64,000 bases of DNA from Lachnospiraceae bacterium (lineage in GTDB: Bacteria; Bacillota; Clostridia; Lachnospirales; Lachnospiraceae). The number at the start of each line of letters is the position of its first letter. The first letter of the stretch is position 1. Where the stretch lies: NCBI GenBank assembly GCA_050875145.1, contig JBNMLH010000006.1, forward strand, positions 41,592-105,591, read 5' to 3'. Position numbers and translations under genes: made by a program. Below the pieces are notes generated by a model, which was not told the origin of the DNA, did not search any database, and saw only the letters and a program-made list of their open reading frames with translations. Of the stretch, positions 2,748-62,719 are shown piece by piece.

Positions 2748-4565
2748 ATGGCACAACAAGTGTTAGAAAGAAGCGAATTAAAAGTAGAAGATACCTGGAA
2801 GTTAGAAGATATATTTGCCAGTGATGAATTATGGGAAAAGGCATATAAAGAAGTGTTTTCTTCCTGTGATGCATTGAAACAATGGAAGGGTACGGTAACC
2901 GAGAGTGGAAAAAACTTATTTGACTTTATGAATTTATATGTAAAGACTGGGATCTTGTTTGGAAAGGTTTATGTTTATGCACATCAAAAATACCATCAGG
3001 ATACAGCCAATGCGAAATATCAGGAGTTATCAGACCGAGCAGATACGTTGATGATGCAGTATCAGAGTGCAGTATCTTTTTTTCAACCAGAAATTTTAGA
3101 AGCTTCCGAGGAACAGTTTCAAGCGGTATACACTGCATTTTTAGAAATGATAAACGAGGAAGATCGTGCAGGATATGAAAGATTTTTCGGAGAAATTCTG
3201 CGACAAAAGGAGCATAGATTGTCAGCAGAAATGGAGGAGCTTTTAGCAAGTGCAAGAGATGTATTAAATTCCTCCGATACGATATTTTCTATGTTTAACA
3301 ATGCAGATATATCTTTTCCAACGATTTTGAACGAAGACAGGGAGGAAGTAGCAATTACGCATGGACGTTTTAGTGCTTTGTTACAAAATCAGGATAGAAG
3401 AGTGCGAAAAGATGCATTTGAAGGATTATATAGTAAATATAAGGAATTTGAAAATACGCTTGCGGCAACCTATTCTGCCAATGTGAAGAAAGATATTTTT
3501 ATAGCTAAAACAAGAAAATATGCATCTTCCTTAGCGATGGCTTTGGATGAAAGTAATATTCCTGTTGCAGTGTATCAAAATTTGGTACAGGTGGTACGGG
3601 AGAACTTACCATTGTTGCATCGCTATATGAAGATTAGAAAAAAAGCATTACATTTGGACGAATTGCATTTGTATGATGTGTATGTGCCAATGGTTGAGGA
3701 GAAAAAGAAGGAAATTTCTTTTGAGCAGGCGAAAGAAATGGTATTGGAAGGTCTGGCTCCTATGGGAGAAGAATACCAAAAGTTATTGAAAATGGGATTT
3801 GATAGTCGCTGGATCGATGTATATGAAAATAAAGGAAAGCGAAGTGGTGCATATTCATGGGGATCATATGGTACACATCCTTACGTGTTGCTAAATCACC
3901 AGAATGATTTAAACAGTGTATTTACATTAGCACATGAAATGGGACATTCGTTGCATTCCTATTATTCTAATTCTTCTCAGCCATATATTTGTGCAGATTA
4001 TGAAATCTTTGTGGCAGAAGTGGCATCTACATGTAATGAGGCATTATTGATTCACGATTTACTGGAAAAGACCAGTGACAAAAAAGAACGGGCATATTTG
4101 CTGAATTATCATTTAGAACAGTTCCGTACTACTTTATTTAGACAAACTATGTTTGCCGAATTTGAGTGGAAGGCACATGAGATGGCAGAAAACGGGGAAG
4201 CACTTACCGCACAAAATCTTTCTGAAATGTATCATCAATTAAACGTGGATTATTTTGGAGAGGAGACGGTGATTGATAAAGAAATTGATTTAGAATGGGC
4301 GCGTATTCCACATTTTTATAATTCGTTTTATGTGTACCAGTATGCAACAGGGTATTCAGCAGCCATTGCATTGTCCTCTAAAATTTTAAAAGAAGGAAAG
4401 TCGGCAGTAGACGATTATGTAAATAAATTTTTGCGTGGTGGCGGTTCAAAAGACCCGATTGACTTATTAAAAGGAGCGGGAGTAGATATGAGTAAAAAGG
4501 AATCCGTACAGTCCGCTTTACAGGTATTTGAACAGTTGTTAGATGAAATAGAAGAATTATTATAA
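2748..4565 (+). CDS. pepF: Oligoendopeptidase F (M3B metallopeptidase)
   Basis: 605 aa with a GGAG RBS. The zinc motif is HEMGHSLH with a downstream Glu (FVAEVAST), and the length is typical of PepF. Confidence 0.9.
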   Translation: MAQQVLERSELKVEDTWKLEDIFASDELWEKAYKEVFSSCDALKQWKGTVTESGKNLFDFMNLYVKTGILFGKVYVYAHQKYHQDTANAKYQELSDRADTLMMQYQSAVSFFQPEILEASEEQFQAVYTAFLEMINEEDRAGYERFFGEILRQKEHRLSAEMEELLASARDVLNSSDTIFSMFNNADISFPTILNEDREEVAITHGRFSALLQNQDRRVRKDAFEGLYSKYKEFENTLAATYSANVKKDIFIAKTRKYASSLAMALDESNIPVAVYQNLVQVVRENLPLLHRYMKIRKKALHLDELHLYDVYVPMVEEKKKEISFEQAKEMVLEGLAPMGEEYQKLLKMGFDSRWIDVYENKGKRSGAYSWGSYGTHPYVLLNHQNDLNSVFTLAHEMGHSLHSYYSNSSQPYICADYEIFVAEVASTCNEALLIHDLLEKTSDKKERAYLLNYHLEQFRTTLFRQTMFAEFEWKAHEMAENGEALTAQNLSEMYHQLNVDYFGEETVIDKEIDLEWARIPHFYNSFYVYQYATGYSAAIALSSKILKEGKSAVDDYVNKFLRGGGSKDPIDLLKGAGVDMSKKESVQSALQVFEQLLDEIEELL

Positions 4566-4659
4566 TATAGGAAAAGTGTTTTGTAAGTTTTTAAATGATT
4601 ACAACGGTTGTTGAAGTTCTATAGAAAGGATGGAAGCCTGACGTATTGTTTATGTGAAT

Positions 4660-4704
4660 AACAAAGGGGAGTGTTACGTTTTAGTGTGACACTTCCCTTT
4701 GTTG
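4660..4704. terminator. Shared hairpin terminator between convergent pepF and tmcAL
   Basis: Stem ACAAAGGGGAGTGT / ACACTTCCCTTTGT (one mismatch or wobble) lies between the two stop codons. Confidence 0.6.
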
Positions 4705-5931
4705 TCAAAAGATGACAGGACCCTGTTCATATTCTGTTTTCATAATTGTGCCATATTTTTCATGGCAGATATGATGATAGAGATGTGTTGCTAAAATATC
4801 TTTTTCGAATAAAGAAAACGCTTCTGGTGATAATTGATTTTTAGCCTTGGCAACTTTAGTGATGATTGGTATTTCTGTATTCTGTCCTAAAAGAAAACTT
4901 TTACTTTTGCGAAAACCCAGTAATCGTACATAGGGTGGTTCCTCTATAAAATCCTGTTTCGTTAGATTTAATAAAATATGCAACAGACATCTGCAAACGC
5001 GTGTATATACTAAGTCTTTGGACTTTATCGTCATGGCAAGATCTGAAAAATCGCAAGTATAGGACAAATATTTTTTGATTTTGTTAGATACAGTTTCAGA
5101 AATATCTAAATATTTTGTATAGTCATTTTCTTGGGAAAGTTTATAATACAGCAGACTGGAAAAATCATTTTCTGAAATTGGGAAGGTGCGTTGATACTGC
5201 TCTTTTAAGAAAGGTACGACACAATTCGGGAGGTATTCTATAATTTCAGAAAAATTGTTTTTTGCAAGCAATGTTTTTCTCAATGCAGAGGCAGATGGAA
5301 AGGCATTAGAAATGCTTTCACTGTGATGGGCACTTCCTGTTCGTAAAATTGGTATAGGTGTAATGGTAGACTGTAGTCGAAATAGAGCCTTTTGATATTC
5401 AATCGCTAAAATATTATTTGGATTAGATAAAAGACTGCTTATAATATCTTCTGTCTGGAAAATAGTTTTATGTTTTTGGCAGTAAGATAATATAGCTTTT
5501 TTTCTTGCGGCAGGGTAGGATATGCCGCTTTTTAGTGCCAGTTGCAATTCTTGTTTGAATGCATCTGGTTCCTGACATAAAAGAAGTGCTATATCTTTTA
5601 TATCTTTTATATTAGGAGTTTCACAGCCAAAAGAAATTCCATTGATGAATGGAAGTCGATTTAGTATGGATACTCCTGCAAATGCAAAATTTTCTGCACT
5701 GGATGTAGCATAGATAACAGGAAGCTCGAATACAAAATCAGCGCCTGCGGAAAGTGCCATGCGGGTGCGTGTATACTTATCTGCAATAGCAGGGGTGCCG
5801 CGTTGTACATAATTTCCACTCATAACCACAACTACATTGTCTGCTTGAAACTGTTTTTTGGCTTCCCTGATTTGATAAGCATGTCCCTGATGAAATGGAT
5901 TGTACTCTGCAATAATGCCGATGGTATTCAT
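4705..5931 (-). CDS. tmcAL: tRNA(Met) cytidine acetate ligase (YlbM/UPF0348 nucleotidyltransferase)
   Basis: 408 aa. The N-terminal motif GIIAEYNPFHQGHAYQI is characteristic of the YlbM/TmcAL family. Confidence 0.8.
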   Translation of the reverse strand: MNTIGIIAEYNPFHQGHAYQIREAKKQFQADNVVVVMSGNYVQRGTPAIADKYTRTRMALSAGADFVFELPVIYATSSAENFAFAGVSILNRLPFINGISFGCETPNIKDIKDIALLLCQEPDAFKQELQLALKSGISYPAARKKAILSYCQKHKTIFQTEDIISSLLSNPNNILAIEYQKALFRLQSTITPIPILRTGSAHHSESISNAFPSASALRKTLLAKNNFSEIIEYLPNCVVPFLKEQYQRTFPISENDFSSLLYYKLSQENDYTKYLDISETVSNKIKKYLSYTCDFSDLAMTIKSKDLVYTRVCRCLLHILLNLTKQDFIEEPPYVRLLGFRKSKSFLLGQNTEIPIITKVAKAKNQLSPEAFSLFEKDILATHLYHHICHEKYGTIMKTEYEQGPVIF

Positions 5932-6090
5932 GGTTGAAAACTCCTTTTAAGTAATAAATATACGGTTAAAAATCTAAAAAAATGTTGTGAAATATAACTT
6001 TTTATTATAGTATAGATTATATACAGCATTTTATGTTTTCACAACATAAAATTTGTGTTTGGAGTATTTCAAATTGAATAAGGAGAGCGT

Positions 6091-6966
6091 ATGAAAATGA
6101 ATTTTGCGATTGTAACAGATACGGGGGCAAATTTGCCTGAAAACATAATTGAGGAAAATGAGATTCTTGTTTTATCATTAAGCTTTTTTGTAGATGAAAA
6201 AGAATACTATAGTTACGAACCGGGCAAGAAAACGGATTTATCTGAATTTTATAAAATGATGCGTGAAAAGAAACCGATACGAACTTCTCTGGTAAATGCA
6301 GAATTGGCAAAGGAGCAGATTGGAAAATTATTGTCGGAAGGAAAAGATGTATTATATGTCGGTTTTTCTTCTGGACTTAGTGGAACCTTTCAATCGGTTT
6401 CCATTGCTATGGATGAATTAAAGGAAGAATATCCTGATAGAAAGATTTTAGCGGTAGATACACTTGCTGCAGCGTTGGGGCAGGGGTTACTGGTATATTT
6501 TGCTATCCAACAGAGAAAAGCTGGAGCGCAGATAGAGGACATTTATCAATGGATTATGGAAAATAGATTGCACATATGCCATTGGTTTACGGTAGATGAT
6601 TTGTTTTTCTTAAAGCGTGGAGGCAGAATTTCTGCGGCAACTGCGGTAGTTGGTACTGCCTTGAGTATTAAACCTGTTCTTCATGTGGATGATGAGGGAC
6701 ATTTAATAAATATGTCAAAGACCAGAGGGCGTAAGAAGTCTTTGGAAGCATTATTGAAGAAGTTCGAGGAAACTGCTATAAATCCAGGTGAAACTCCTGT
6801 TTTTATCAGTCATGGTGACTGTTTGGAAGATGCAAAATATGTGGAACAAAGATTAAAAGAAAAATATGGAGTGAAAGAGGTTTTGATACAGATTCTTGAT
6901 CCTGTGATTGGTGCGCATGCTGGTCCGGGAACGGTAGCATTGTTTTTTGTTGGAACACAGAGATAG
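6091..6966 (+). CDS. DegV family fatty-acid-binding protein
   Basis: 291 aa. It has the FAIVTDTGANLP N-terminus, a family-typical length, and the C-terminal GPGTVALFF pattern. Confidence 0.85.
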   Translation: MKMNFAIVTDTGANLPENIIEENEILVLSLSFFVDEKEYYSYEPGKKTDLSEFYKMMREKKPIRTSLVNAELAKEQIGKLLSEGKDVLYVGFSSGLSGTFQSVSIAMDELKEEYPDRKILAVDTLAAALGQGLLVYFAIQQRKAGAQIEDIYQWIMENRLHICHWFTVDDLFFLKRGGRISAATAVVGTALSIKPVLHVDDEGHLINMSKTRGRKKSLEALLKKFEETAINPGETPVFISHGDCLEDAKYVEQRLKEKYGVKEVLIQILDPVIGAHAGPGTVALFFVGTQR

Positions 6967-7070
6967 AGCGGATAATACCCAAAATGCAAGTGGTAATTTA
7001 TGGTTATTTTGTAATCGGTTTTTGTACTTAAAAAGATACAATTTGATAGTTTATTTTTTCAAGAAGTGTC

Positions 7071-7099
7071 TTGTATGAAAAAAATGATTGCTTTATAAT
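7071..7099 (+). promoter_or_regulatory. Putative sigma-A promoter of the pta-ackA operon
   Basis: TTGTAT (7071-7076), a 17-nt spacer, then TATAAT (7094-7099). Confidence 0.45.
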
Positions 7100-7137
7100 G
7101 GGGAATGGTGAAAAATAAGATGAGAATTTTGCAGCTA

Positions 7138-7152
7138 TTGAAATCGGTTCCT
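7138..7152 (+). promoter_or_regulatory. cre-like (CcpA) site in the pta leader
   Basis: TTGAAATCGGTTCCT fits every fixed position of the degenerate cre consensus WTGNAANCGNWNNCW. Confidence 0.3.
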
Positions 7153-7235
7153 AAAATTTGAGTCATATGATGATATAGAAACTATATGGTTGCAAGCAAG
7201 GTTTCATAAATCGATGATAGAAAGGTGCGAGACGA

Positions 7236-8246
7236 ATGGGATTTATTGATGATATTAAAGAACGTGCAAGAAAAAATAAAAAAAAGATTGTACTGCCAGA
7301 AACAGCAGACGTCAGAATTATAAAAGCAGCCGCTGAGGTTTTAAAAGAGGACATTGCGGAACTGGTTCTGGTTGGTAATAAAGAGACAATCTTGGATGAT
7401 GCCAAAAATTATGGTTATCATTTACAGGGAGCTAATATTGTGGATCCTGAGAATTTTGAAAAGATGGATTCGTATGTAGACATGCTTGTACAGCTTCGTC
7501 AGAAGAAAGGAATGACACCAGAAAAGGCAAGAGAACTTCTTACTTCTGACTATTTGCATTTTGGAGTTATGATGGTAAAGATGGGAGATGCAGACGGAAT
7601 GGTAGCGGGTGCCTGCCATGCAACAGCCGATGTATTGCGTCCTTCCCTTCAAATTTTAAAGACAGCTCCAGGAACAGAATTGGTTTCCGGTATGTTTGTG
7701 ATGGTTGTGCCAGATTGCGATTATGGTGCAAATGGAACATTTATTTTTTCTGATGCCGGATTAAATCAGAATCCAACAGCAGAAGAGCTTGCAATTATTG
7801 CAGGCACAACAGCAAAAAGTTTTCGCCTTTTAGTGCAGGAGGAGCCAATTGTAGCAATGATTTCCCATTCTACAAAAGGAAGTGCATCTCATCCAGATGT
7901 AGATAAGGTTGTAAAAGCAACGGCTCTTGCAAAAGAGAAATATCCAAAAGTAAAGCTGGATGGAGAGTTTCAGGTGGATGCAGCAATTGTGCCAAGTGTA
8001 GGCGCATTTAAGGCACCTGGTAATAATGTAGCAGGCCATGCGAATGTACTTGTATTCCCAAATCTGGATGCTGGAAATAACGGATATAAGCTGGTGCAGA
8101 GACTAGCAAAGGCAGAGGCTTATGGTCCTTTGACACAGGGAATTGCAAAACCGGTAAATGATTTGTCAAGAGGTTGCTCTGCAACTGATATTGTGGGTGT
8201 TGTAGCAATCACAGCAGTACAGGCTGGCGCAGAGGATGATAAATAG
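7236..8246 (+). CDS. pta: Phosphate acetyltransferase
   Basis: 336 aa, short-form Pta. The N-terminus IKERARKNKKKIVLPETADVRIIKAA is family-typical, and ackA follows directly. Confidence 0.92.
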   Translation: MGFIDDIKERARKNKKKIVLPETADVRIIKAAAEVLKEDIAELVLVGNKETILDDAKNYGYHLQGANIVDPENFEKMDSYVDMLVQLRQKKGMTPEKARELLTSDYLHFGVMMVKMGDADGMVAGACHATADVLRPSLQILKTAPGTELVSGMFVMVVPDCDYGANGTFIFSDAGLNQNPTAEELAIIAGTTAKSFRLLVQEEPIVAMISHSTKGSASHPDVDKVVKATALAKEKYPKVKLDGEFQVDAAIVPSVGAFKAPGNNVAGHANVLVFPNLDAGNNGYKLVQRLAKAEAYGPLTQGIAKPVNDLSRGCSATDIVGVVAITAVQAGAEDDK

Positions 8247-40268: not shown

Positions 40269-43200
40269 TTATAGATGTAAAAGCTTTTTCATTTTGTGAA
40301 GTAATACATCCATTTCAATTGGTTTTCCAATGTGTCCGTTCATACCAGCAGCTAAGGCATCTTTTTTATCCTCATCAAATGCATTTGCTGTCAAAGCTAA
40401 GATTGGAATATTCTTGGCATCGCTGCGGCTTAATTTACGGATGCGTTTTGTTGCTTCGTACCCATTTAGAACAGGCATATTAATATCCATAAGAATAAGC
40501 TGGAATGTATCCGGTGGATTATTGGAAAAGAGGTTAATCGCCTCTTCGCCGTTTGAAGCAACTGTGACGGTAGCATTTGCCATTTCCAGCATTGTTGTGG
40601 CAATTTCCGCATTGATTTCATTATCTTCCGCCATTAAGATATGGATGCCAGATAAAGTAATCGTTTCTTCGGAATTTTTTGCAGAGTTTTCCAATTGACT
40701 TTTTAATTGTTCCCGTTGTAATAAAGTCGGAATCGGAAGAGGAAGTGTAAAATAAAAGGTAGAGCCTTTTCCAATTTCGCTGTCTACTTCCAGCTTTCCA
40801 CCTAATAAATGTACAAAATCACTACTGATTGTCAGACCAAGACCAGTGCCACCATATTGATTTACAATCGTATCTTCCGCTTGTTCAAAAGCTGCAAATA
40901 TTTTTTTCTTTGCTTCCTTGGATATGCCAATACCTGTATCGGAAATTGAAAACTTTATTTCTGTAAGAGAATTTGTTTTGCTTAGTTCTTCAATTGCCAA
41001 CGTGACAGTACCATTTTCTGGTGTGAATTTTAACGCATTTCCTAAGATATTCACAAGCACTTGTGACAAACGGAGAGAGTCGCATATAATTTCGTTTGTT
41101 TCGTAGGCACGTTTAATAATAAAATTGACATTTTTTGAAAGAGCCTGTGGTCGGACGATAGAATCTACGCTATCAATAACGGTGTGTAGTAACAATGGTT
41201 CTTTGTTTACCTTCATTCTGCCGCTCTCAATCTTAGATAAATCTAAAATATCATTGATTAGGTTGAGTAGGTGATGAGAGGATAAATCAATTTTTGCAAG
41301 ACATTCTTGCACCCTTGCTGGATTATCGATGGTTTTTTGCGCAATTTCTGTCATTCCGATGATTGCATTCATTGGTGTTCGTATCTCATGCGACATATTT
41401 GACAAAAAGGAGCTTTTTGCTTGATTTGCACTGTCCGCATTTAATTTGTTCAAAGCATTATTGATGATACGGGTTGCTTCTTCAACAAAATATTTTTCTC
41501 TGTCATCCCAGTTATATTCCGCTATTTTTTTATCAAAAAAGATAATACCAAATATATTTCCCTCAGAAATTAAAGGGCAGGATAATTGTGAACCCAAATA
41601 AAACTTTTCGAGAGAGAACTCACTGACATCAATCAATTCCTTTGTATGAGGTTGGTAAAGAAGCTTTTTTAAATCAACTATTTTTGATGCAGTATATAAA
41701 TTGAAGAAATTCTTTACGTTAGAGGTGTCTAATGTATGAAATTTTATGGATAACATATCCTCTTCGTTTTTTACCCATTGGTATAGCAAAGTTGGTTTTG
41801 GTTTTTCTTCTGAAAGATTGATAATAACAATACGATCCATGTTTAAATATTTACCAACCTGTTCAATCACCATACGAATACTGCTTTTTAAATCCTTTGT
41901 ATCTTCAATCAAATCTGCCATGGTATTGAAAAAAGAGTGTTGCTCAATCCATTGCTGCAACGTGCCAGCGGCTTCAAATTTGTATTCCTTTCGGATACTT
42001 TCTTGAGAAAATTCAGCTTCCAAAGCATCTAATTCAGAAACTTTGAGTGTGAGATTTTTCATTGCTTGAGAAAGTAATTGTTTAAATGGAAGAGTATCCA
42101 CTTGAAGTTCTACTTCACAAATCAGATGTTTTACGCTTCCTTCTCCAATATACATTTTTTCCAAAGCTTTTGTAATATTTTTGGCTATAGACTCTATTTT
42201 ATCAGAAGAAGTATTTTCGGTATAGACAAGAAAAATAGCACCTTCATAGCGGCATACATAGGATGCATCTGGTGTATAAGAGCAGATAATGTCTGCAATA
42301 TTACGAAGAATCATCTCTCCAAATACATGCCCGTATGCTTGCAAGATTTTTAGGTAGTTTATAGTATTAATCAGAAGCAGGCCATGTGTATGTAAAATAT
42401 GTTCAGAGAGGCAAATCTGATCCTCTACAGCTTCATACAAATATAGTCCGGTTACTCTGTCCTGCTTTTCTTTTTCTATTTGTAATTCCTGTCTTTTCTT
42501 TTCTAAAGTAATATCGCGAAGTCTTCCTACGATGGAACGAAGCTCACCAGCTTCATTTGTACAACTCTTTCCTTCGTAAAGCATCCAACAGTCTGTTTCC
42601 AAACCATTTTTGTCGAGTGTTTTATAATAAATTTCAGAAGGAGAATGTAATTGTCCTTTCATTAGCTTCTGAAACGCCCGCATAAGAGTATGAGAGCCCT
42701 TAAAATCAGATTTAATATAGGATTTAAAATTTTCAATTATAAAATCATCTGACATTGCATCGGAAAAAGGAGGAAATGTCGTAGTAGCAGAAAAGCGGTC
42801 TGCTTCCAAATCATATTCAATGATAATATCTGAAGTGCTCTCTACTGCGATACGAAAACGTTCTTTTTCCTTTGTAACAACATCAATTAAATTTGTTTGT
42901 AAGGAAAGGTATTCGTCAATACGTTTTAAAAAGTAAAACAATGCTATGAATACAATGCCAAATTCGAATGTTAGTCCAATTGAATAGCCGATAAATGCCC
43001 GTGTACTGTTTGAATATTGTTTATAGTAGAGTAATTCATAGTACATGTGTGTACTGAAAAATAGAGATATAATCATAGAAACATATTCCACAGCGCTAAC
43101 CAGCAAAGTCAACTTTTTATTGAAATATAAGCAACTGATTGCTGGAGCAAAAGCATACATCAACCATACAGGCATACCGCATTGAAAAGAAATAATACTA

Positions 43201-57522: not shown

Positions 57523-57615
57523 CTGACATTAAAACTTAAAATTGTAAATGATAATCTGTAGCTTAAAAAGTGAAGATATAGGTAAAAATAGTGGAATGGT
57601 TTATTGGCAGGTAAT

Positions 57616-57647
57616 AAAGCGGATTGCGAATATCCGCTTTTCTTTTG
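57616..57647 (+). terminator. Rho-independent terminator after ilvBN
   Basis: Stem AAAGCGGAT / ATCCGCTTT is followed by TCTTTTGTT. Confidence 0.7.
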
Positions 57648-57699
57648 TTCTGAGAAAAATATGTATGGGAAACAGGTGGCACAGATAGGAGGTTGTGAG

Positions 57700-58299
57700 A
57701 TGAACGAGGATCGACTAAAAAAACAGATGGAATTCTGTCTTGAAATTGATAAAGAAAAGCGAATTGGCAGACAAACCTATCGTTCGGACGGAGTACAGAA
57801 AGAAAATGATGCAGAACATGCATGGCATATGGCAGTGATGACATTACTGTTAAGTGAATATGCAAATGAAAAGATTGATGTTTTGCGTACGGTTAGTATG
57901 TTACTAATTCATGACCTAGTAGAAATATATGCAGGTGACACATATGCGTATGATGAAGAAGCAAAAAAGACGCAACGGCAGCGAGAACTGAGTGCAGCGG
58001 AAAAATTATTTTCTATTTTGCCTAAAGATCAGGGAAAGTTTCTGAGAGGTTTATGGGATGAATTTGAAGAGGGAACTACTGCGGAGGCAAAATTTGCGCA
58101 TACCATGGATAATTTTCAGCCGACTATGTTAAATGCGGCAACAGAAGGAAAAGGATGGGTAGAAAAGAAGGCGCAATTATCGAAAATTCTTGAACGAAAT
58201 AAGCATACAGAAGAAGGCTCTCAAACGTTGTGGAATTATTCTTTTCACAATTTTATTATGCCTAATGTGGAAAATGGAAATATAGCGGATGATAGATAA
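57700..58299 (+). CDS. HD-domain phosphohydrolase (YfbR-like 5'-deoxynucleotidase family)
   Basis: ATG 57700 follows TAGGAGG. The metal ligands are NDAEHAWHMAV and LLIHDLVEIYAGD. Confidence 0.8.
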   Translation: MNEDRLKKQMEFCLEIDKEKRIGRQTYRSDGVQKENDAEHAWHMAVMTLLLSEYANEKIDVLRTVSMLLIHDLVEIYAGDTYAYDEEAKKTQRQRELSAAEKLFSILPKDQGKFLRGLWDEFEEGTTAEAKFAHTMDNFQPTMLNAATEGKGWVEKKAQLSKILERNKHTEEGSQTLWNYSFHNFIMPNVENGNIADDR

Positions 58300-58875: not shown

Positions 58876-60078
58876 ATGAAAAACAGGAATGGTAAAATCA
58901 GATGTGTTGCTGGTGGTATGGCGTTGATATTAGGATTGCAGATTTTATCTGGTAGTACAACAAAGGTACAGCCGAAAGAGAGCGTTCAGGCTGCTTCTTT
59001 GTCAAGTGAGGAGAGAATAGATGTTGCTACAGGTCCGTCAGTAACCACAGGCGTGGCTGTAGTTACTGACGACAGTATTTTTGCAACTCCATTTCCTGAT
59101 AAAGAGGAGGATGTCACTTTTAAAGCGGCGTCTTATACAATTCCATACGGATGGACAAGAAAAATTAGCTGTACAATTCCTAGTACAATGAGAAAATATA
59201 CATTTGTTTACACATCTTCTAACACAAAGGTGGCAAAAGTAGATAAAAATGGAATTGTAACGGGAGTTTCCAATGGAAAAGCGAAGATAACTGTGACAGC
59301 AAAAGAAGATTCGAATATTAAGGCAAGTTATATTGCAGTTGTAAAAAGGGAAAAAGAAGGTTGGCATACTACATCTTCAGGAAAAAAATATTATGTTACA
59401 GAGGAAAAAGAAAGGGCGATTGGTTATTTTAAGGCAAATGGAAATTATTATTTTGCAGCAGCCAATTCCTATATTATTACCGACAAGTGGAAGTATGTTG
59501 AGATAGATAAGAGAAAATACAAATTATATTTTGGAAATGATGGAAAGCAAAAACAGAATGTTTCTGCACTAATTGGCGAACAGGAACAATACAAAATTGA
59601 AGTAAATATTTCAAAAAACACAGTAATTGTTTATGCAAAAGATGGGAAAAAAGGTTATACAATCCCGGTTAAAGCGATGGTTTGCTCTTGTGGAATAAAG
59701 GGACATGCGACAATTACAGGTTCTTATTCAAAGCTTCGTAAAGCTGGAAAATGGCATCCGTTGTATTATGGAACTTATGGAAAATATTGTACAAGAATTT
59801 CAGGACCATATCTATTTCATTCTGTTGTTTATAAAAAATATGGTGATAGCTACTCGTTAAATGCAGATGAATTTTTAAAGTTGGGTGAGCCTGCGTCTCA
59901 TGGTTGTATACGTTTGCAGGTAAAAGATGCAAAATGGATATATAATCGTTCCAATAAATGTAGTGTAACTTTGTATAAAGGAAAAGAACAGTTGCCTTTA
60001 AAGAAACCAAAAGCAGCAAAGCCGATTACTTTAAAGGGAAATAAGGCGTATGATCCGACTGACGCAGATGTGAAATAA
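58876..60078 (+). CDS. L,D-transpeptidase (YkuD) with Big_2 and putative cell-wall-binding repeats
   Basis: It has a signal peptide, an Ig-like domain (SSNTKVAKVDKNGIVTGVSNGKAKITV) and Gly-Trp/Tyr repeats. The catalytic motif is SHGCIRL. Confidence 0.85.
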   Translation: MKNRNGKIRCVAGGMALILGLQILSGSTTKVQPKESVQAASLSSEERIDVATGPSVTTGVAVVTDDSIFATPFPDKEEDVTFKAASYTIPYGWTRKISCTIPSTMRKYTFVYTSSNTKVAKVDKNGIVTGVSNGKAKITVTAKEDSNIKASYIAVVKREKEGWHTTSSGKKYYVTEEKERAIGYFKANGNYYFAAANSYIITDKWKYVEIDKRKYKLYFGNDGKQKQNVSALIGEQEQYKIEVNISKNTVIVYAKDGKKGYTIPVKAMVCSCGIKGHATITGSYSKLRKAGKWHPLYYGTYGKYCTRISGPYLFHSVVYKKYGDSYSLNADEFLKLGEPASHGCIRLQVKDAKWIYNRSNKCSVTLYKGKEQLPLKKPKAAKPITLKGNKAYDPTDADVK

Positions 60079-60088
60079 GGGGAAATAT

Positions 60089-62719
60089 ATGAGACATACA
60101 ATAATTGGAATTTTGGCACATGTAGATGCTGGAAAAACCACATTATCAGAAGGAATGCTTTATCAAAGTGGTGTTCTGAAAAAATTAGGTAGAGTGGATC
60201 ATAAAGATGCATTTTTGGACACTTTTTCCTTGGAAAAAGAGCGAGGAATTACTATTTTTTCAAAACAGGCGAGATTTCAGTGGAGGGATTTGGATATTAC
60301 ATTATTAGACACTCCGGGACATGTGGACTTTTCTACTGAGATGGAGCGTACATTACAAGTGTTAGATTATGCTGTTTTGGTTATAAATGGCTCAGATGGA
60401 GTACAAGGGCATACGGAAACACTTTGGAGATTATTAAAACTGTATAAGATTCCTACTATTTTATTTGTGAATAAAATGGATTTGCAAATAAAGCCGAAGG
60501 ATGAAATCCTAGCAGAGTTACAGAAAAAACTCTCAGATAATTGCATTGATTTTTCCTTAGATGCCAAAGAAAATGAGGGACAATTCTATGAAAGTGTTGC
60601 GATGTGCGAGGAGAAAGCATTGGATTTGTTCATGGAAAATGGAAAAGTTGAGCAGAAGGTAATTGCAGAATTAATACAAAAAAGAAAGGTGTTTCCTTGT
60701 TATTTTGGTGCTGCATTAAAAATGGAAGGAATGGAAGAACTGTTGGATGGAATAGCAGCTTATGTCATACAAAAACAGTATCCACAGGAATTTGCTGCCA
60801 AAGTATACAAGATTGCCAGAGACGAGCAAAAGAATCGGTTGACCTATATGAAAATTACGGGAGGAACTTTGCAGACCAAGGGGATTATTTCGGGAAACAC
60901 TACAAAGATGCAAGGGGAGCAGTCTGGTAAATGGCAGGAAAAAGTAAATCAGATTCGGGTGTATTCTGGTGAACGTTATACAGCAGTACAGGAAGTACAG
61001 GCAGGAATGGTTTGTGCTGTGACAGGACTGACAAAGACGTATCCGGGACAAAATTTAGGGACAGAATCCTCCGACGAACTATCGGTATTGGAACCGGTAC
61101 TGACGTATCAAATCATATTTGAACCAGATACGGATCCTGCAGGAGCTTTTCGTGAAATAAAGGTATTAGTCGAAGAAGATCCTCAGTTGCATATTTTATG
61201 GAATGAAGCATTGCAGGAAGTTCACATTCAGCTTATGGGGGAAGTGCAGATAGAGGTTTTGAAGCAATTAATCTATGAGCGTTTTGGATATAAAGTTTCT
61301 TTTGGACAAGGAACGATTGTTTACAAGGAGACTATTAAAGATGAAGTGGAAGGGGTTGGGCATTTTGAACCTCTTAGGCATTATGCTGAGGTTCATTTGC
61401 GATTAGAGCCGCTTGAAGCAGGAAGCGGTTTACAGTTTGCTTTGGATTGTAGTGAGGATGTATTAGAGAAAAACTGGCAAAGATTAATCTATACGCATTT
61501 AGAAGAAAAAGAGCATGTTGGAGTTTTAACGGGTTCTCCGATTACAGATATGCGGTTGACTGTTGTCGCGGGAAGAGCACATAATAAACATACAGAAGGC
61601 GGAGACTTCAGGCAGGCGACTTATCGTGCCGTACGTCAAGGTTTAAAAATGGCAGAGAGTATTTTGCTGGAACCTTATTACCAATTTACCTTGCAAGTGC
61701 CATCTGAACAGGTGGGAAGGGCAATGAATGATATACAGCGTATGTGTGGAGAATTTGGATTGCCTGAAACAGTAGGAGAATTTTCTGTTTTGAAAGGAAA
61801 AGCACCAGTGGCAACAATGGCTGGTTATGTAAAGGAAGTGCATGCTTATACCCATGGACAAGGACAGCTTTCTTGTCAGGTATGTGGTTATTTTCCGTGT
61901 CACAATCAGGATGAGGTGATAGAAAAAATTGGGTATGATAGTGAAACAGATGTGGAAAATCCTACCTGTTCTGTTTTTTGTGCGCATGGTGCAGGTTTCC
62001 TAGTTCCCTGGGATCAGGTGCAGGAGTATATGCATGTGGAAAGTTTTTATAAAAAAGTTGGTGAAGAAACGATATCGCAACCGACTCTTAGAACACAAAG
62101 TATTTCCTCTGAGGGGGATGAGGCAGAACTGGAACGTATCATGCTTCGAGAATTTGGAGAACAACGAAAACGCTTTGATGATTATGGGAATGTATATTAT
62201 AACGAGGAAGAGAAAAAGACAAAGAAGATTTCTTCGGGAGAAAAAAAGGAGGGAGATCCTAAATATCAAAAAAGAGAAAAAAAGAGTAAAGTACAGAAAG
62301 AATATTTGCTAGTTGACGGATACAATATTATTTTTTCGTGGGATGAATTGAATGAATTATCTAAAATAAGCCTTGATGCAGCTCGTGTTAAACTAATGGA
62401 TTTGCTTTGCAATTATCAAGGGTATACAAAGCAGAATGTGATTGTTGTATTTGATGCGTATAAAGTAAAAGGAAATCCGGGAAGTATTGAAAAGTATCAC
62501 AATATACATGTGGTTTTTACAAAAGAAGCAGAGACTGCGGATATGTACATTGAAAAGGTAACGCATGAAATTGGAAGACAGCATAAAGTGATAGTTGCAA
62601 CTTCGGATGGAATGGAGCAGGTTATTATTATGCAGCAGGGAGCACTGCGTATGTCTGCAACGGATTTGAAAAAACATATGGAATGGATTGCAGAACAAAT
62701 GAGACAATATTTAACATAA
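60089..62719 (+). CDS. Fusion protein of a Tet(M)/EF-G-family translational GTPase (about aa 1-640) and a Rae1/YacP-type NYN endoribonuclease (about aa 700-876)
   Basis: A single 876-codon ORF after AAGGGGAA. GTPase motifs are AHVDAGKTT, DTPGH and NKMD, with RPP/EF-G domains III-V (LLEPYYQF...). A Lys/Glu-rich linker follows. The NYN motifs are LLVDGYNIIF, VVFDAYK, FTKEAETADMYIEK, VATSDGMEQ and GALRMSA. Confidence 0.85.
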   Translation: MRHTIIGILAHVDAGKTTLSEGMLYQSGVLKKLGRVDHKDAFLDTFSLEKERGITIFSKQARFQWRDLDITLLDTPGHVDFSTEMERTLQVLDYAVLVINGSDGVQGHTETLWRLLKLYKIPTILFVNKMDLQIKPKDEILAELQKKLSDNCIDFSLDAKENEGQFYESVAMCEEKALDLFMENGKVEQKVIAELIQKRKVFPCYFGAALKMEGMEELLDGIAAYVIQKQYPQEFAAKVYKIARDEQKNRLTYMKITGGTLQTKGIISGNTTKMQGEQSGKWQEKVNQIRVYSGERYTAVQEVQAGMVCAVTGLTKTYPGQNLGTESSDELSVLEPVLTYQIIFEPDTDPAGAFREIKVLVEEDPQLHILWNEALQEVHIQLMGEVQIEVLKQLIYERFGYKVSFGQGTIVYKETIKDEVEGVGHFEPLRHYAEVHLRLEPLEAGSGLQFALDCSEDVLEKNWQRLIYTHLEEKEHVGVLTGSPITDMRLTVVAGRAHNKHTEGGDFRQATYRAVRQGLKMAESILLEPYYQFTLQVPSEQVGRAMNDIQRMCGEFGLPETVGEFSVLKGKAPVATMAGYVKEVHAYTHGQGQLSCQVCGYFPCHNQDEVIEKIGYDSETDVENPTCSVFCAHGAGFLVPWDQVQEYMHVESFYKKVGEETISQPTLRTQSISSEGDEAELERIMLREFGEQRKRFDDYGNVYYNEEEKKTKKISSGEKKEGDPKYQKREKKSKVQKEYLLVDGYNIIFSWDELNELSKISLDAARVKLMDLLCNYQGYTKQNVIVVFDAYKVKGNPGSIEKYHNIHVVFTKEAETADMYIEKVTHEIGRQHKVIVATSDGMEQVIIMQQGALRMSATDLKKHMEWIAEQMRQYLT

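Follow-up and report, generated by a model that had tools for sequence, protein, structure and literature searches.

A Tet/EF-G-like translational GTPase fused to a Rae1-type endoribonuclease in Lachnospiraceae: a candidate ribosome-surveillance factor

What could be the use of a translational GTPase that carries a ribonuclease at its C-terminal end? This question is raised by a gene of a Lachnospiraceae bacterium, located in a window of 64,000 nucleotides (positions 41,592 to 105,591 of contig JBNMLH010000006.1, GenBank assembly GCA_050875145.1), which is the whole stretch of DNA analysed here. The gene begins with an ATG and runs uninterrupted over 876 codons on the forward strand (Table 1). 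An earlier sequence-only reading had described it as a Tet(M)/EF-G-like ribosomal GTPase fused to a Rae1/YacP-type NYN endoribonuclease. The follow-up analysis leads us to view its product as a predicted three-part protein, made of a GTPase of an uncharacterised subfamily, a tether and a Rae1 domain. We further propose, with about even chances of being right, that it is a single-polypeptide ribosome-surveillance factor, the GTPase of which would dock on stalled or collided ribosomes while its tethered nuclease would cut the mRNA.

The reality of the fusion was considered before its function. The single uninterrupted open reading frame (ORF) announced by the sequence-only reading was borne out by the ORF list and by the translation, and both halves were recognised by Pfam, with E-values of 2e-52 for GTP_EFTU and 7.7e-49 for NYN_YacP. 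An ORF of such length, matching two profiles with such strength, is far beyond chance. The motifs quoted for it were all recovered, namely AHVDAGKTT at residues 10-18, DTPGH at 74-78, NKMD at 128-131 and HNKHTEGGDFR at 498-508, followed in the nuclease half by LLVDGYN at 740-746, VVFDAYK at 786-792, ETAD at 815-818 and ATSD at 837-840. Its identity to CDE45639.1, a protein of Clostridium sp. CAG:411 (Lachnospiraceae) annotated as a 'putative tetracycline resistance protein TetP', reaches 98%, and the window organism appears close to this Clostridium. The corresponding 98%-identity cluster comprises 68 members; all the 15 listed members, for which lengths were read, have the same 876 residues and come from many independent assemblies, as expected for a gene devoid of any internal stop or frameshift. 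The same domain string is present in all of the best 120 homologous clusters. The identical-length copies in independent assemblies, the same architecture in further clusters and the full-length copies observed at the species level (see below) all indicate that the fusion is not an assembly artefact.

Such an architecture had already been reported twice, and is thus not new. TetM-like–NYN_YacP fusions in Clostridia were noted by Atkinson 2015 (BMC Genomics, PMC4342817) and by Matelska et al. 2017 (Nucleic Acids Research, PMC5499597); they share both architecture and taxon with the window protein, with no difference in kind. These two surveys recorded the domain combination only ('ten species', 'some Clostridia') and left its function open, with a suggestion by Atkinson 2015 of a possible new resistance mechanism through RNase activity (PMC4342817). 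The sequence-only reading was therefore right in knowing of no characterised member, since none was found in the literature, and wrong in taking the architecture as unreported. The elements added here are at least 80 full-length species-level copies, a conserved Cys/His module, an unfused form of the GTPase, the failure of the protein in tests for ribosomal protection proteins, and a link to the revised mechanism of Rae1.

The nuclease half is the more straightforward to assign. The Pfam NYN_YacP profile (PF05991) matches residues 740-873 with 166.3 bits, for a gathering threshold of 24.6, and positions 1-136 of its 166 are covered. This domain shares 46% identity with residues 4-135 of Bacillus subtilis Rae1 (PDB 5mq8/5mq9, E 6e-26). 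Its AlphaFold2 model, which has a predicted local distance difference test score (pLDDT) of 85-92, superimposes onto 5mq9 with an E-value of 7e-12, a root-mean-square deviation of 1.5 Å over 136 columns and a template modelling score of 0.75. The four aspartates D743, D789, D818 and D840 correspond to D7, D53, D81 and D104 of B. subtilis Rae1, and are invariant both in an alignment of 44 family sequences and in a second alignment (A2). The catalytic mutant of Rae1 is indeed D7N D81N (PMC10351889). Judged by these residues, the C-terminal part is predicted to be a catalytically intact Rae1-type NYN endoribonuclease. The setting differs strongly, since B. subtilis Rae1 is a free protein of 170 residues that ends in a C-terminal tail and whose gene belongs to the gltX...rlmB-yacP operon, whereas the fused NYN domain lies at the C-terminus of an 876-residue GTPase in an unrelated gene context. 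The Rae1-type tail is absent in the subclade of the window protein; it is kept by free Rae1-like proteins and by most other fused members.

The N-terminal half contains all the elements of a translational GTPase. In the G domain, the motifs G1 (AHVDAGKT, residues 10-17), switch-I T55, G3 (DTPGH, with the catalytic H78) and G4 (NKMD, residues 128-131) can all be identified, and the P-loop, T55, H78 and the NKxD motif are invariant in the 44-sequence alignment. The five domains follow each other in the expected order (Table 1); the Pfam EFG_III match is marginal, with 25.9 bits, just below the cut-off of 27. The full-length AlphaFold2 model was placed on EF-G by Foldseek with an E-value of 4e-51. 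Residues 1 to ~604 thus look like a complete five-domain translational GTPase of the EF-G/Tet type, catalytically intact as far as its motifs can tell. The catalytic residues of both halves, which the sequence-only reading had taken as present, are not only intact but invariant across the family, and both enzymatic halves appear to be under purifying selection.

Domain IV is the most conserved region of the protein, with a mean column identity of 0.87. When the family alignment was extended from 44 to 131 members, two motifs of its tip remained essentially invariant. The first one, G422-x-G-H-[FY]-E-P-L-R-H-Y-A-E-V-H436, is encoded by nucleotides 61352-61396, and the second one, G495-[RK]-A-H-x-K-H-T-E-G-G-D-F-R508, by nucleotides 61571-61612, at the position of loop III of Tet(M) and Tet(O). 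Five histidines (H425, H431, H436, H498 and H501), together with E427, E434, K500 and E503, are invariant or nearly so at this tip in the 131 fused proteins. Such a His-rich tip is unlike that of EF-G or of the Tet proteins, and could bind a metal, contact RNA or be catalytic.

How close is this GTPase to the tetracycline ribosomal protection proteins (RPPs) after which databases name it (TetM/W/O/S family or TetP)? The overall likeness to Tet(M) and Tet(O) lies in the five-domain EF-G-like layout, in the short G' insert and in the DFR motif that follows loop III; residues 5-604 are collinear with residues 5-613 of TetO. The G' insert is indeed about 74 residues shorter than in EF-G, since residue 235 aligns with EF-G residue 309, and loop I of domain IV is four residues shorter than its EF-G counterpart. 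The identity to Tet(B(P)), Tet(O), Tet(M), Tet(S) and Tet(W) is nevertheless only 28-31%, about equal to the 25-28% observed with EF-G, and the PDB search gave equal scores for TetO (253 bits) and EF-G (249 bits). Among the NCBIfam models, the general RPP one, NF012153 (tet_protect), scores best, with 423 bits for a cut-off of 775. The specific RPP models tested, for Tet(M/W/O/S), Tet(Q) and Otr(A), are far from being reached, with 281 vs 1100 for TetM/W and 277 vs 1425 and 296 vs 900 for the others. The EF-G models are not reached either (296 vs 659 for TIGR00484, and 322 vs 583).

The loop that dislodges tetracycline had been given in the sequence-only reading as YSPVSTPADFR in TetO. This proved correct, and the TetO loop aligns with AHNKHTEGGDFR. 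Where Tet(O) has YSPVSTPA, the fusion family has AHNKHTEGG, which is invariant in its 131 members, and H498 aligns with the histidine found at the tip of domain IV in EF-G (H573 in Thermus thermophilus). Published work on Tet(M) indicates that loop III can accept sequence changes as long as it retains its conformation (PMC4750697), so that a different loop III is not decisive alone. The C-terminal region also departs from the RPPs, in which a short extension helix ends the protein at about 640 residues, whereas the fusion continues with a 45-residue Cys/His module, a linker and the NYN domain. This module is foreign to RPPs, as the RPP alignments stop at residues 601-604. The GTPase half is therefore best described, at the level of its sequence, as something other than a bona fide RPP. 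The earlier doubt about a classical tetracycline resistance protein was thus well founded, given the scores below the RPP cut-offs, the low identity, the different loop III and the housekeeping neighbours described below.

The Cys/His module had been overlooked in the sequence-only reading. The two halves had been correctly recognised, but their boundaries have to be moved, since the Tet/EF-G homology ends at about residue 604 rather than 640, and the NYN domain starts at residue 738 rather than at about 700. Residues ~640-700 had been taken as a Lys/Glu-rich linker; residues 596-650 are in fact a conserved module, and the low-complexity linker corresponds to residues 651-737. Among the 131 members, the conservation in the module reaches 130 for C604, 115 for H605, 131 for C631, 127 for H633, 131 for W641 and 130 for H649. 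This pattern suggests a metal site. No sequence match to the module was found in Pfam or in the PDB, and the AlphaFold2 confidence in this region is low in both models, with a pLDDT below 50 for residues 622-638.

The module is absent from Tet(M), Tet(O), Tet(B(P)) and EF-G, and present in an unfused homologue encoded on megaplasmids of Ligilactobacillus salivarius. This protein of 644 residues (for example WP_164920261.1 on pMP118) is annotated as a tetracycline RPP and named 'translation factor GTPase family protein'. It is 47% identical to the window protein over residues 1-655 of the latter, shares the domain-IV motifs GHFEPLRHY[AS]EVH and HTxGGDFRQA as well as the whole Cys/His module, and ends right past this module, without linker and without NYN domain. 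H425, H431, H436 and H501 of the His-rich tip are also present in the L. salivarius protein, whereas H498, K500 and E503 of the fused family are not conserved in it. A subfamily of Tet-like GTPases with a Cys/His module is defined here, which comprises the fused members and WP_164920261.1; the fusion of the window displays both domain-IV tips and the module, with the pattern PCHN...SVFCxHGxG..V.W....MH. The N-terminal 650 residues are considered as a distinct Tet/EF-G-like subfamily because the unfused L. salivarius protein is closer to them and shares the tips and the module. The GTPase thus appears not to be of the Tet(M)/Tet(O) type first assumed, and its separate subfamily also exists in an unfused form.

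The genes around the unfused GTPase deserve a mention. On pMP118 (NC_007930.1; positions 4402-4986 of the extracted locus L089), the GTPase gene is divergent from genes for an 89-residue S14 paralogue (rpsN) and for a 35-residue 'putative metal homeostasis protein'. A perfect palindrome, AGTAAT-C-ATTACT, which resembles a Zur box, lies just upstream of rpsN (positions 4823-4835 of the same locus). Taken with the Cys/His module, this arrangement hints at a possible connection with zinc; it could also be a coincidence.

The linker has a different character. The flexible spacer between residues 650 and 738 is always present in the relatives, with a length of 77-143 residues and a poorly conserved sequence, in which a semi-conserved helix can be recognised at about residues 674-689 (L681, I684, R687, and the following G690). 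Its pLDDT is below 50 in the AlphaFold2 model. A long and poorly conserved linker is as expected for a tether. At the DNA level, it contains two runs of seven A, at 62241 and 62277.

Table 1. Position of the fusion gene and of its parts in the window
Feature	Positions	Strand	Basis
Shine-Dalgarno-like AAGGGG, 6 nt ahead of the ATG of the fusion gene	60077..60082	+	read from the sequence
Whole gene, 876-residue fusion protein and stop codon	60089..62719	+	ORF list, Pfam
G domain with short G' insert, residues 2-226	60092..60766	+	Pfam GTP_EFTU, 2e-52
Domains II and III, residues 235-316 and 335-406	60791..61306	+	Pfam EF-G_D2, EFG_III
Domain IV, residues 409-522	61313..61654	+	Pfam EFG_IV; TetO and EF-G alignments
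Domain V, residues 526-607	61664..61909	+	Pfam EFG_C, 3.7e-18
Cys/His module, residues 596-650	61874..62038	+	family conservation
Lys/Glu-rich linker, residues 651-737	62039..62299	+	15 E and 15 K among 87 residues
Rae1/YacP-type NYN endoribonuclease domain, residues 738-873	62300..62707	+	Pfam, PDB, AlphaFold2

The fusion is widely distributed. A scan restricted to one genome per species yielded at least 600 pattern matches, 596 of which were confirmed as relatives, and the best 80 of these 596 are all full-length fusions. The claim is limited to at least 80 species with an intact fusion, because the 596 may include free NYN genes. Within Lachnospiraceae, the fusion is found in Blautia, Roseburia, Dorea, Coprococcus, Mediterraneibacter, Robinsoniella, Enterocloster aldenensis, Herbinix, Lachnospira and others, and within Oscillospiraceae in Intestinimonas, Flavonifractor, Anaerotruncus and Oscillibacter. 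Monoglobus and Agathobacter also carry it, and the matches labelled as 'plasmid' correspond to very large replicons of these two genera. The best 80 fused loci range from 33 to 66% GC and contain exactly one NYN domain each, with no free NYN gene within ~8 kb of the fused one. The fusion looks stable and ancient, and its inheritance looks vertical.

Two contigs from human faeces, recorded as 'UNVERIFIED: Bacteriophage sp.' (MT835563.1, locus L090, positions 5397-8024, and MT835514.1), also contain a full-length fusion gene. The neighbours with Pfam matches on MT835563.1 are of bacterial type (an NAD(P)H-hydrate dehydratase, a citrate transporter and a peptidoglycan-binding protein), and these records probably represent bacterial DNA that ended up among virome data.

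The origin of the nuclease half was approached through the comparison of fused and free forms. Free NYN proteins of about 172 residues exist in Lacrimispora, Enterocloster asparagiformis and lavalensis, Lachnoclostridium edouardi, Anaerolentibacter and Anaeromicropila. The free NYN proteins of Lachnospiraceae share a mean identity of 63% with the fused NYN domains, and each of the two groups shows about 45% identity to B. subtilis Rae1. A neighbour-joining tree gathers the fused domains in a single, almost exclusive clade, which is nested within the free ones. To judge from these sequences, the most likely origin is a single fusion event that involved a clostridial Rae1. At three loci, the free NYN gene is preceded by an aspartate aminotransferase gene and followed by tyrS, and MntP adjoins the NYN gene in four of five; no GTPase gene lies beside the free NYN genes at the loci examined. 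In Lacrimispora (loci L004 and L005, positions 3610-5522), a gene for a MATE efflux transporter directly adjoins the free NYN gene. A MATE neighbour shared by free NYN and fused genes may go back to an ancestral locus, or be due to chance. The comparison of fused and split forms called for by the sequence-only reading shows a wide presence of the fusion in Lachnospiraceae and Oscillospiraceae, with free NYN genes in Lachnospiraceae as well; within the 64-kb window, a tblastn search found no second yacP/NYN gene and no second translational GTPase.

Some apparently stand-alone NYN proteins, the closest ones to the fused NYN domain, were rejected as true fissions, as they derive from frameshifted or fragmented fused genes at the three loci checked. 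In these loci from public assemblies, gene calling breaks the fused gene into two or more ORFs that overlap, with pieces of the GTPase beside an NYN protein that seems to stand alone (L001, positions 3838-6510; L002, 3609-6534; L003, 3837-6879). The break occurs late in the gene in L002, where an N-terminal ORF of 830 residues overlaps a 279-residue NYN ORF, and near the start of the Cys/His module in L003. Such split calls most likely result from sequencing errors in homopolymers or from pseudogenes, and the runs of seven A in the linker DNA are a plausible cause of the frameshifted copies. The apparent number of free NYN proteins is inflated because split fused genes are counted among them.

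The surroundings of the fused gene are those of a housekeeping gene. The window neighbours are ilvB, ilvN, an HD_3 hydrolase, a NUDIX hydrolase, a YkuD/Big_2 L,D-transpeptidase and a transglutaminase-like protein; these six annotated genes include neither rlmB nor a sigH-type gene. This setting is chromosomal, and no mobile-element or defence context was found there. No conserved gene neighbourhood emerged from 68 fused loci, the commonest neighbour being a MATE transporter in eight of them (for example L023), and no transposon or plasmid context was found in these 68 loci. PADLOC returned only a non-significant TIR-like match.

What is known about Rae1 provides the background for a functional proposal. 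Its mRNA cleavage was found experimentally to depend on stalled or collided ribosomes and to feed transfer-messenger RNA (tmRNA) (PMC12407103, PMC13622287). The fusion is mentioned neither in PMC12407103 nor in the sections of PMC13622287 that were consulted for it. The generation of tmRNA substrates by Rae1 on collided ribosomes is called the CART pathway. The cleavage occurs 12 nt upstream of the stalled A-site codon, between collided ribosomes, according to work of 2025-26. The previous view that Rae1 cuts at the A site, on which the sequence-only reading relied, has thus been revised, and the fusion is therefore no longer most naturally read as a GTPase that brings a nuclease to the A site. 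The association of Rae1 with the ribosome is transient, for which reason no structure of it in the bound state exists (PMC13622287). On the GTPase side, the EF-G/Tet class binds the factor site of the ribosome, with domain IV reaching the A site (PMC4342817).

These elements can be assembled into the following scheme. In its GTP form, the GTPase would dock at the ribosomal factor-binding site, where its conserved domain-IV tip would probe the A site and decoding centre of the 30S subunit. This docking would select stalled ribosomes whose A site is accessible, or trailing ribosomes of a collision in a rotated state similar to an EF-G substrate, and would raise the local concentration of the tethered nuclease. 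The latter would cut the mRNA either on the docked ribosome or where this ribosome meets its collided neighbour, in the manner of free Rae1, which cleaves 12 nt upstream of the stalled A-site codon. GTP hydrolysis would then release the factor, and the truncated mRNA would be left to trans-translation by tmRNA and to mRNA decay. The fusion would thus hard-wire an otherwise transient contact between Rae1 and the ribosome. As a rough estimate, a disordered tether of 87 residues may span ~80-300 Å and reach the mRNA entry or exit of the same or of a neighbouring ribosome. Since the tether is never short (77-143 residues), it fits an action at a distance better than an action inside the adjacent A site.

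Several systems seem to follow a similar logic. SmrB in Escherichia coli and Cue2 in yeast are collision-dependent mRNA endonucleases (PMC13622287), and Hbs1–Dom34 associates a translational GTPase with an A-site factor brought to stalled ribosomes (PMC4342817). The theme that they share with the proposed scheme is to recognise a stalled or collided ribosome, to cut or clear the mRNA, and to hand over to rescue. The SMR fold of SmrB and Cue2 is unrelated to the NYN fold of the fusion, so that the likeness is in the working mode and not in the family. Among such ribosome-rescue analogues, we know of no case in which GTPase and nuclease are part of one polypeptide.

The proposal of a surveillance factor is supported by the stability of the fusion, the conservation of the active sites in both halves, the close relationship of the NYN domain to Rae1 and the housekeeping setting. 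The co-existence of an unfused GTPase in L. salivarius and of stand-alone Rae1-like proteins also makes a Rosetta-stone pattern. Several points weigh against it. The NYN_YacP family was first predicted to act in rRNA and tRNA maturation, because B. subtilis yacP shares an operon with mrnC and rlmB (PMC5499597). Ribosome binding, GTP dependence and RNA substrate are all taken over from homologues, and members of the GTPase superfamily are also engaged in drug displacement and ribosome assembly. The full-length AlphaFold2 model, with a pLDDT of 69, does not tell in any usable way where the NYN domain sits with respect to the GTPase. The 68 loci contain no conserved neighbours that would link the fusion to tmRNA, ribosome quality control or RNA decay. 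The fusion and free Rae1 overlap at the genus level only (Enterocloster and Lachnoclostridium species or metagenome-assembled genomes). No experimental study of the fusion was found in the literature.

A bolder version can be put forward more tentatively, as we hold it to be less likely than not. The fusion would be a GTP-gated sensor of stalled or collided ribosomes, acting at the factor site with a nuclease of its own, in a kind of one-protein 'no-go decay', and the unfused GTPase would be the partner of free Rae1. If this is true, the unfused Cys/His-module GTPase of Lactobacillales would be, by Rosetta-stone logic, an unrecognised GTPase of ribosome quality control.

Eukaryotic 18S maturation, with its PIN nuclease Nob1 and its eIF5B GTPase step, offers an analogue for a different function, in which rRNA would be the target of the NYN domain, to be trimmed or cleaved once the GTPase has settled on a nascent or damaged ribosome, either as a check on maturation or to inactivate the ribosome. 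This rRNA-directed alternative, which we consider unlikely, would agree with the initial prediction for NYN_YacP (PMC5499597) and with the link of the EF-G paralogues LepA and BipA to subunit assembly (PMC12787274). It is opposed by the fact that every substrate of Rae1 that has been defined by experiment is a translated mRNA, by the close relationship and identical active site of the fused NYN domain and Rae1, and by the absence of rRNA-processing genes nearby, both at the 68 loci and among the window neighbours.

It is a still less probable option that the two halves work independently, the fusion securing only the co-expression and stoichiometry of a housekeeping GTPase and of the lineage's Rae1, without any delivery through the tether. 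The existence of both parts as separate proteins elsewhere and the poor conservation of the linker sequence would be in keeping with it. Against it, the fusion and its long linker are kept in every intact member examined, across two orders and a deep divergence, the linker includes a semi-conserved helix, and the NYN-only proteins of the three loci checked are frameshifted fused genes rather than fissions.

A genuine tetracycline RPP with an added RNase domain, in line with the suggestion of Atkinson 2015, has become improbable. The general RPP model is indeed the best NCBIfam hit, the collinearity with TetO and the short G' typical of Tet proteins are real, database names point in this direction, and a modified loop III can be tolerable as long as its conformation is preserved (PMC4750697). 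The same models are nevertheless missed by wide differences (423 vs 775, and 281 vs 1100 for TetM/W), the Tet proteins are hardly closer than EF-G, the replacement of YSPVSTPA is invariant in the family, and a Cys/His module stands in place of the RPP extension. Moreover, the gene is chromosomal, among ilvBN, HD, NUDIX and YkuD genes, and its distribution over genomes of 33-66% GC looks vertical; none of the transposon or plasmid settings typical of RPP genes was found.

RNases directed against translation are frequent among defence effectors. An abortive-infection toxin or anti-phage effector of this kind, which would shut off translation by cutting RNA on ribosomes and which echoes the phage-triggered role first envisaged, is nonetheless very improbable: the Rae1 authors speculate on a defence against phage mRNA (PMC13622287) and two 'Bacteriophage sp.' contigs carry the gene, but these are UNVERIFIED metagenome records, one of them (MT835563.1) with bacterial-type genes, PADLOC gave no significant match, there is neither an antitoxin-like or defence neighbour nor any conserved neighbourhood, and a single copy per locus is inherited in a way that looks vertical.

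A few observations concern the immediate sequence context of the gene. The Shine-Dalgarno-like AAGGGG overlaps the TAA stop codon (60076-60078) of the upstream YkuD/Big_2 gene, and the fusion ORF begins 10 nt past this stop. With this overlap and no terminator-like site between them, the two genes are probably co-transcribed. No Rfam match was found around the fusion gene, and the promoter and terminator counts there are at chance level. Further upstream (57604-57700), the listed HD_3 ORF begins at a TTG (57604) and crosses a terminator-like hairpin with its T-tract (57616-57640), located directly after ilvN; its real start is probably an ATG further in, at residues MNEDRL. The HD_3, NUDIX, YkuD and fusion genes may then be transcribed as a unit of their own, located past the ilvBN terminator. 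Over the whole window (1-64000), the gene-like ORFs of at least 120 residues are nearly all on the forward strand and the GC content is 36%, as is typical of a leading-strand segment of a Firmicutes chromosome.

The practical consequences begin with annotation. The labels 'TetM/TetW/TetO/TetS family tetracycline resistance protein' and 'TetP', attached to this protein in many gut Lachnospiraceae and Oscillospiraceae genomes, can inflate the resistome counts of microbiome studies. A Rae1 domain tethered to a factor-site GTPase could also be locked on ribosomes, by using GDPNP or an H78 mutant together with D743N/D818N, which would give a handle for trapping Rae1. The fusion exposes an uncharacterised subfamily of Tet/EF-G-like GTPases with a conserved Cys/His module, and it would represent, for bacteria, the first example of an mRNA endonuclease joined to a translational GTPase within a single chain. 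If the one-protein no-go decay is true, it would show how Rae1-type nucleases find their ribosomes.

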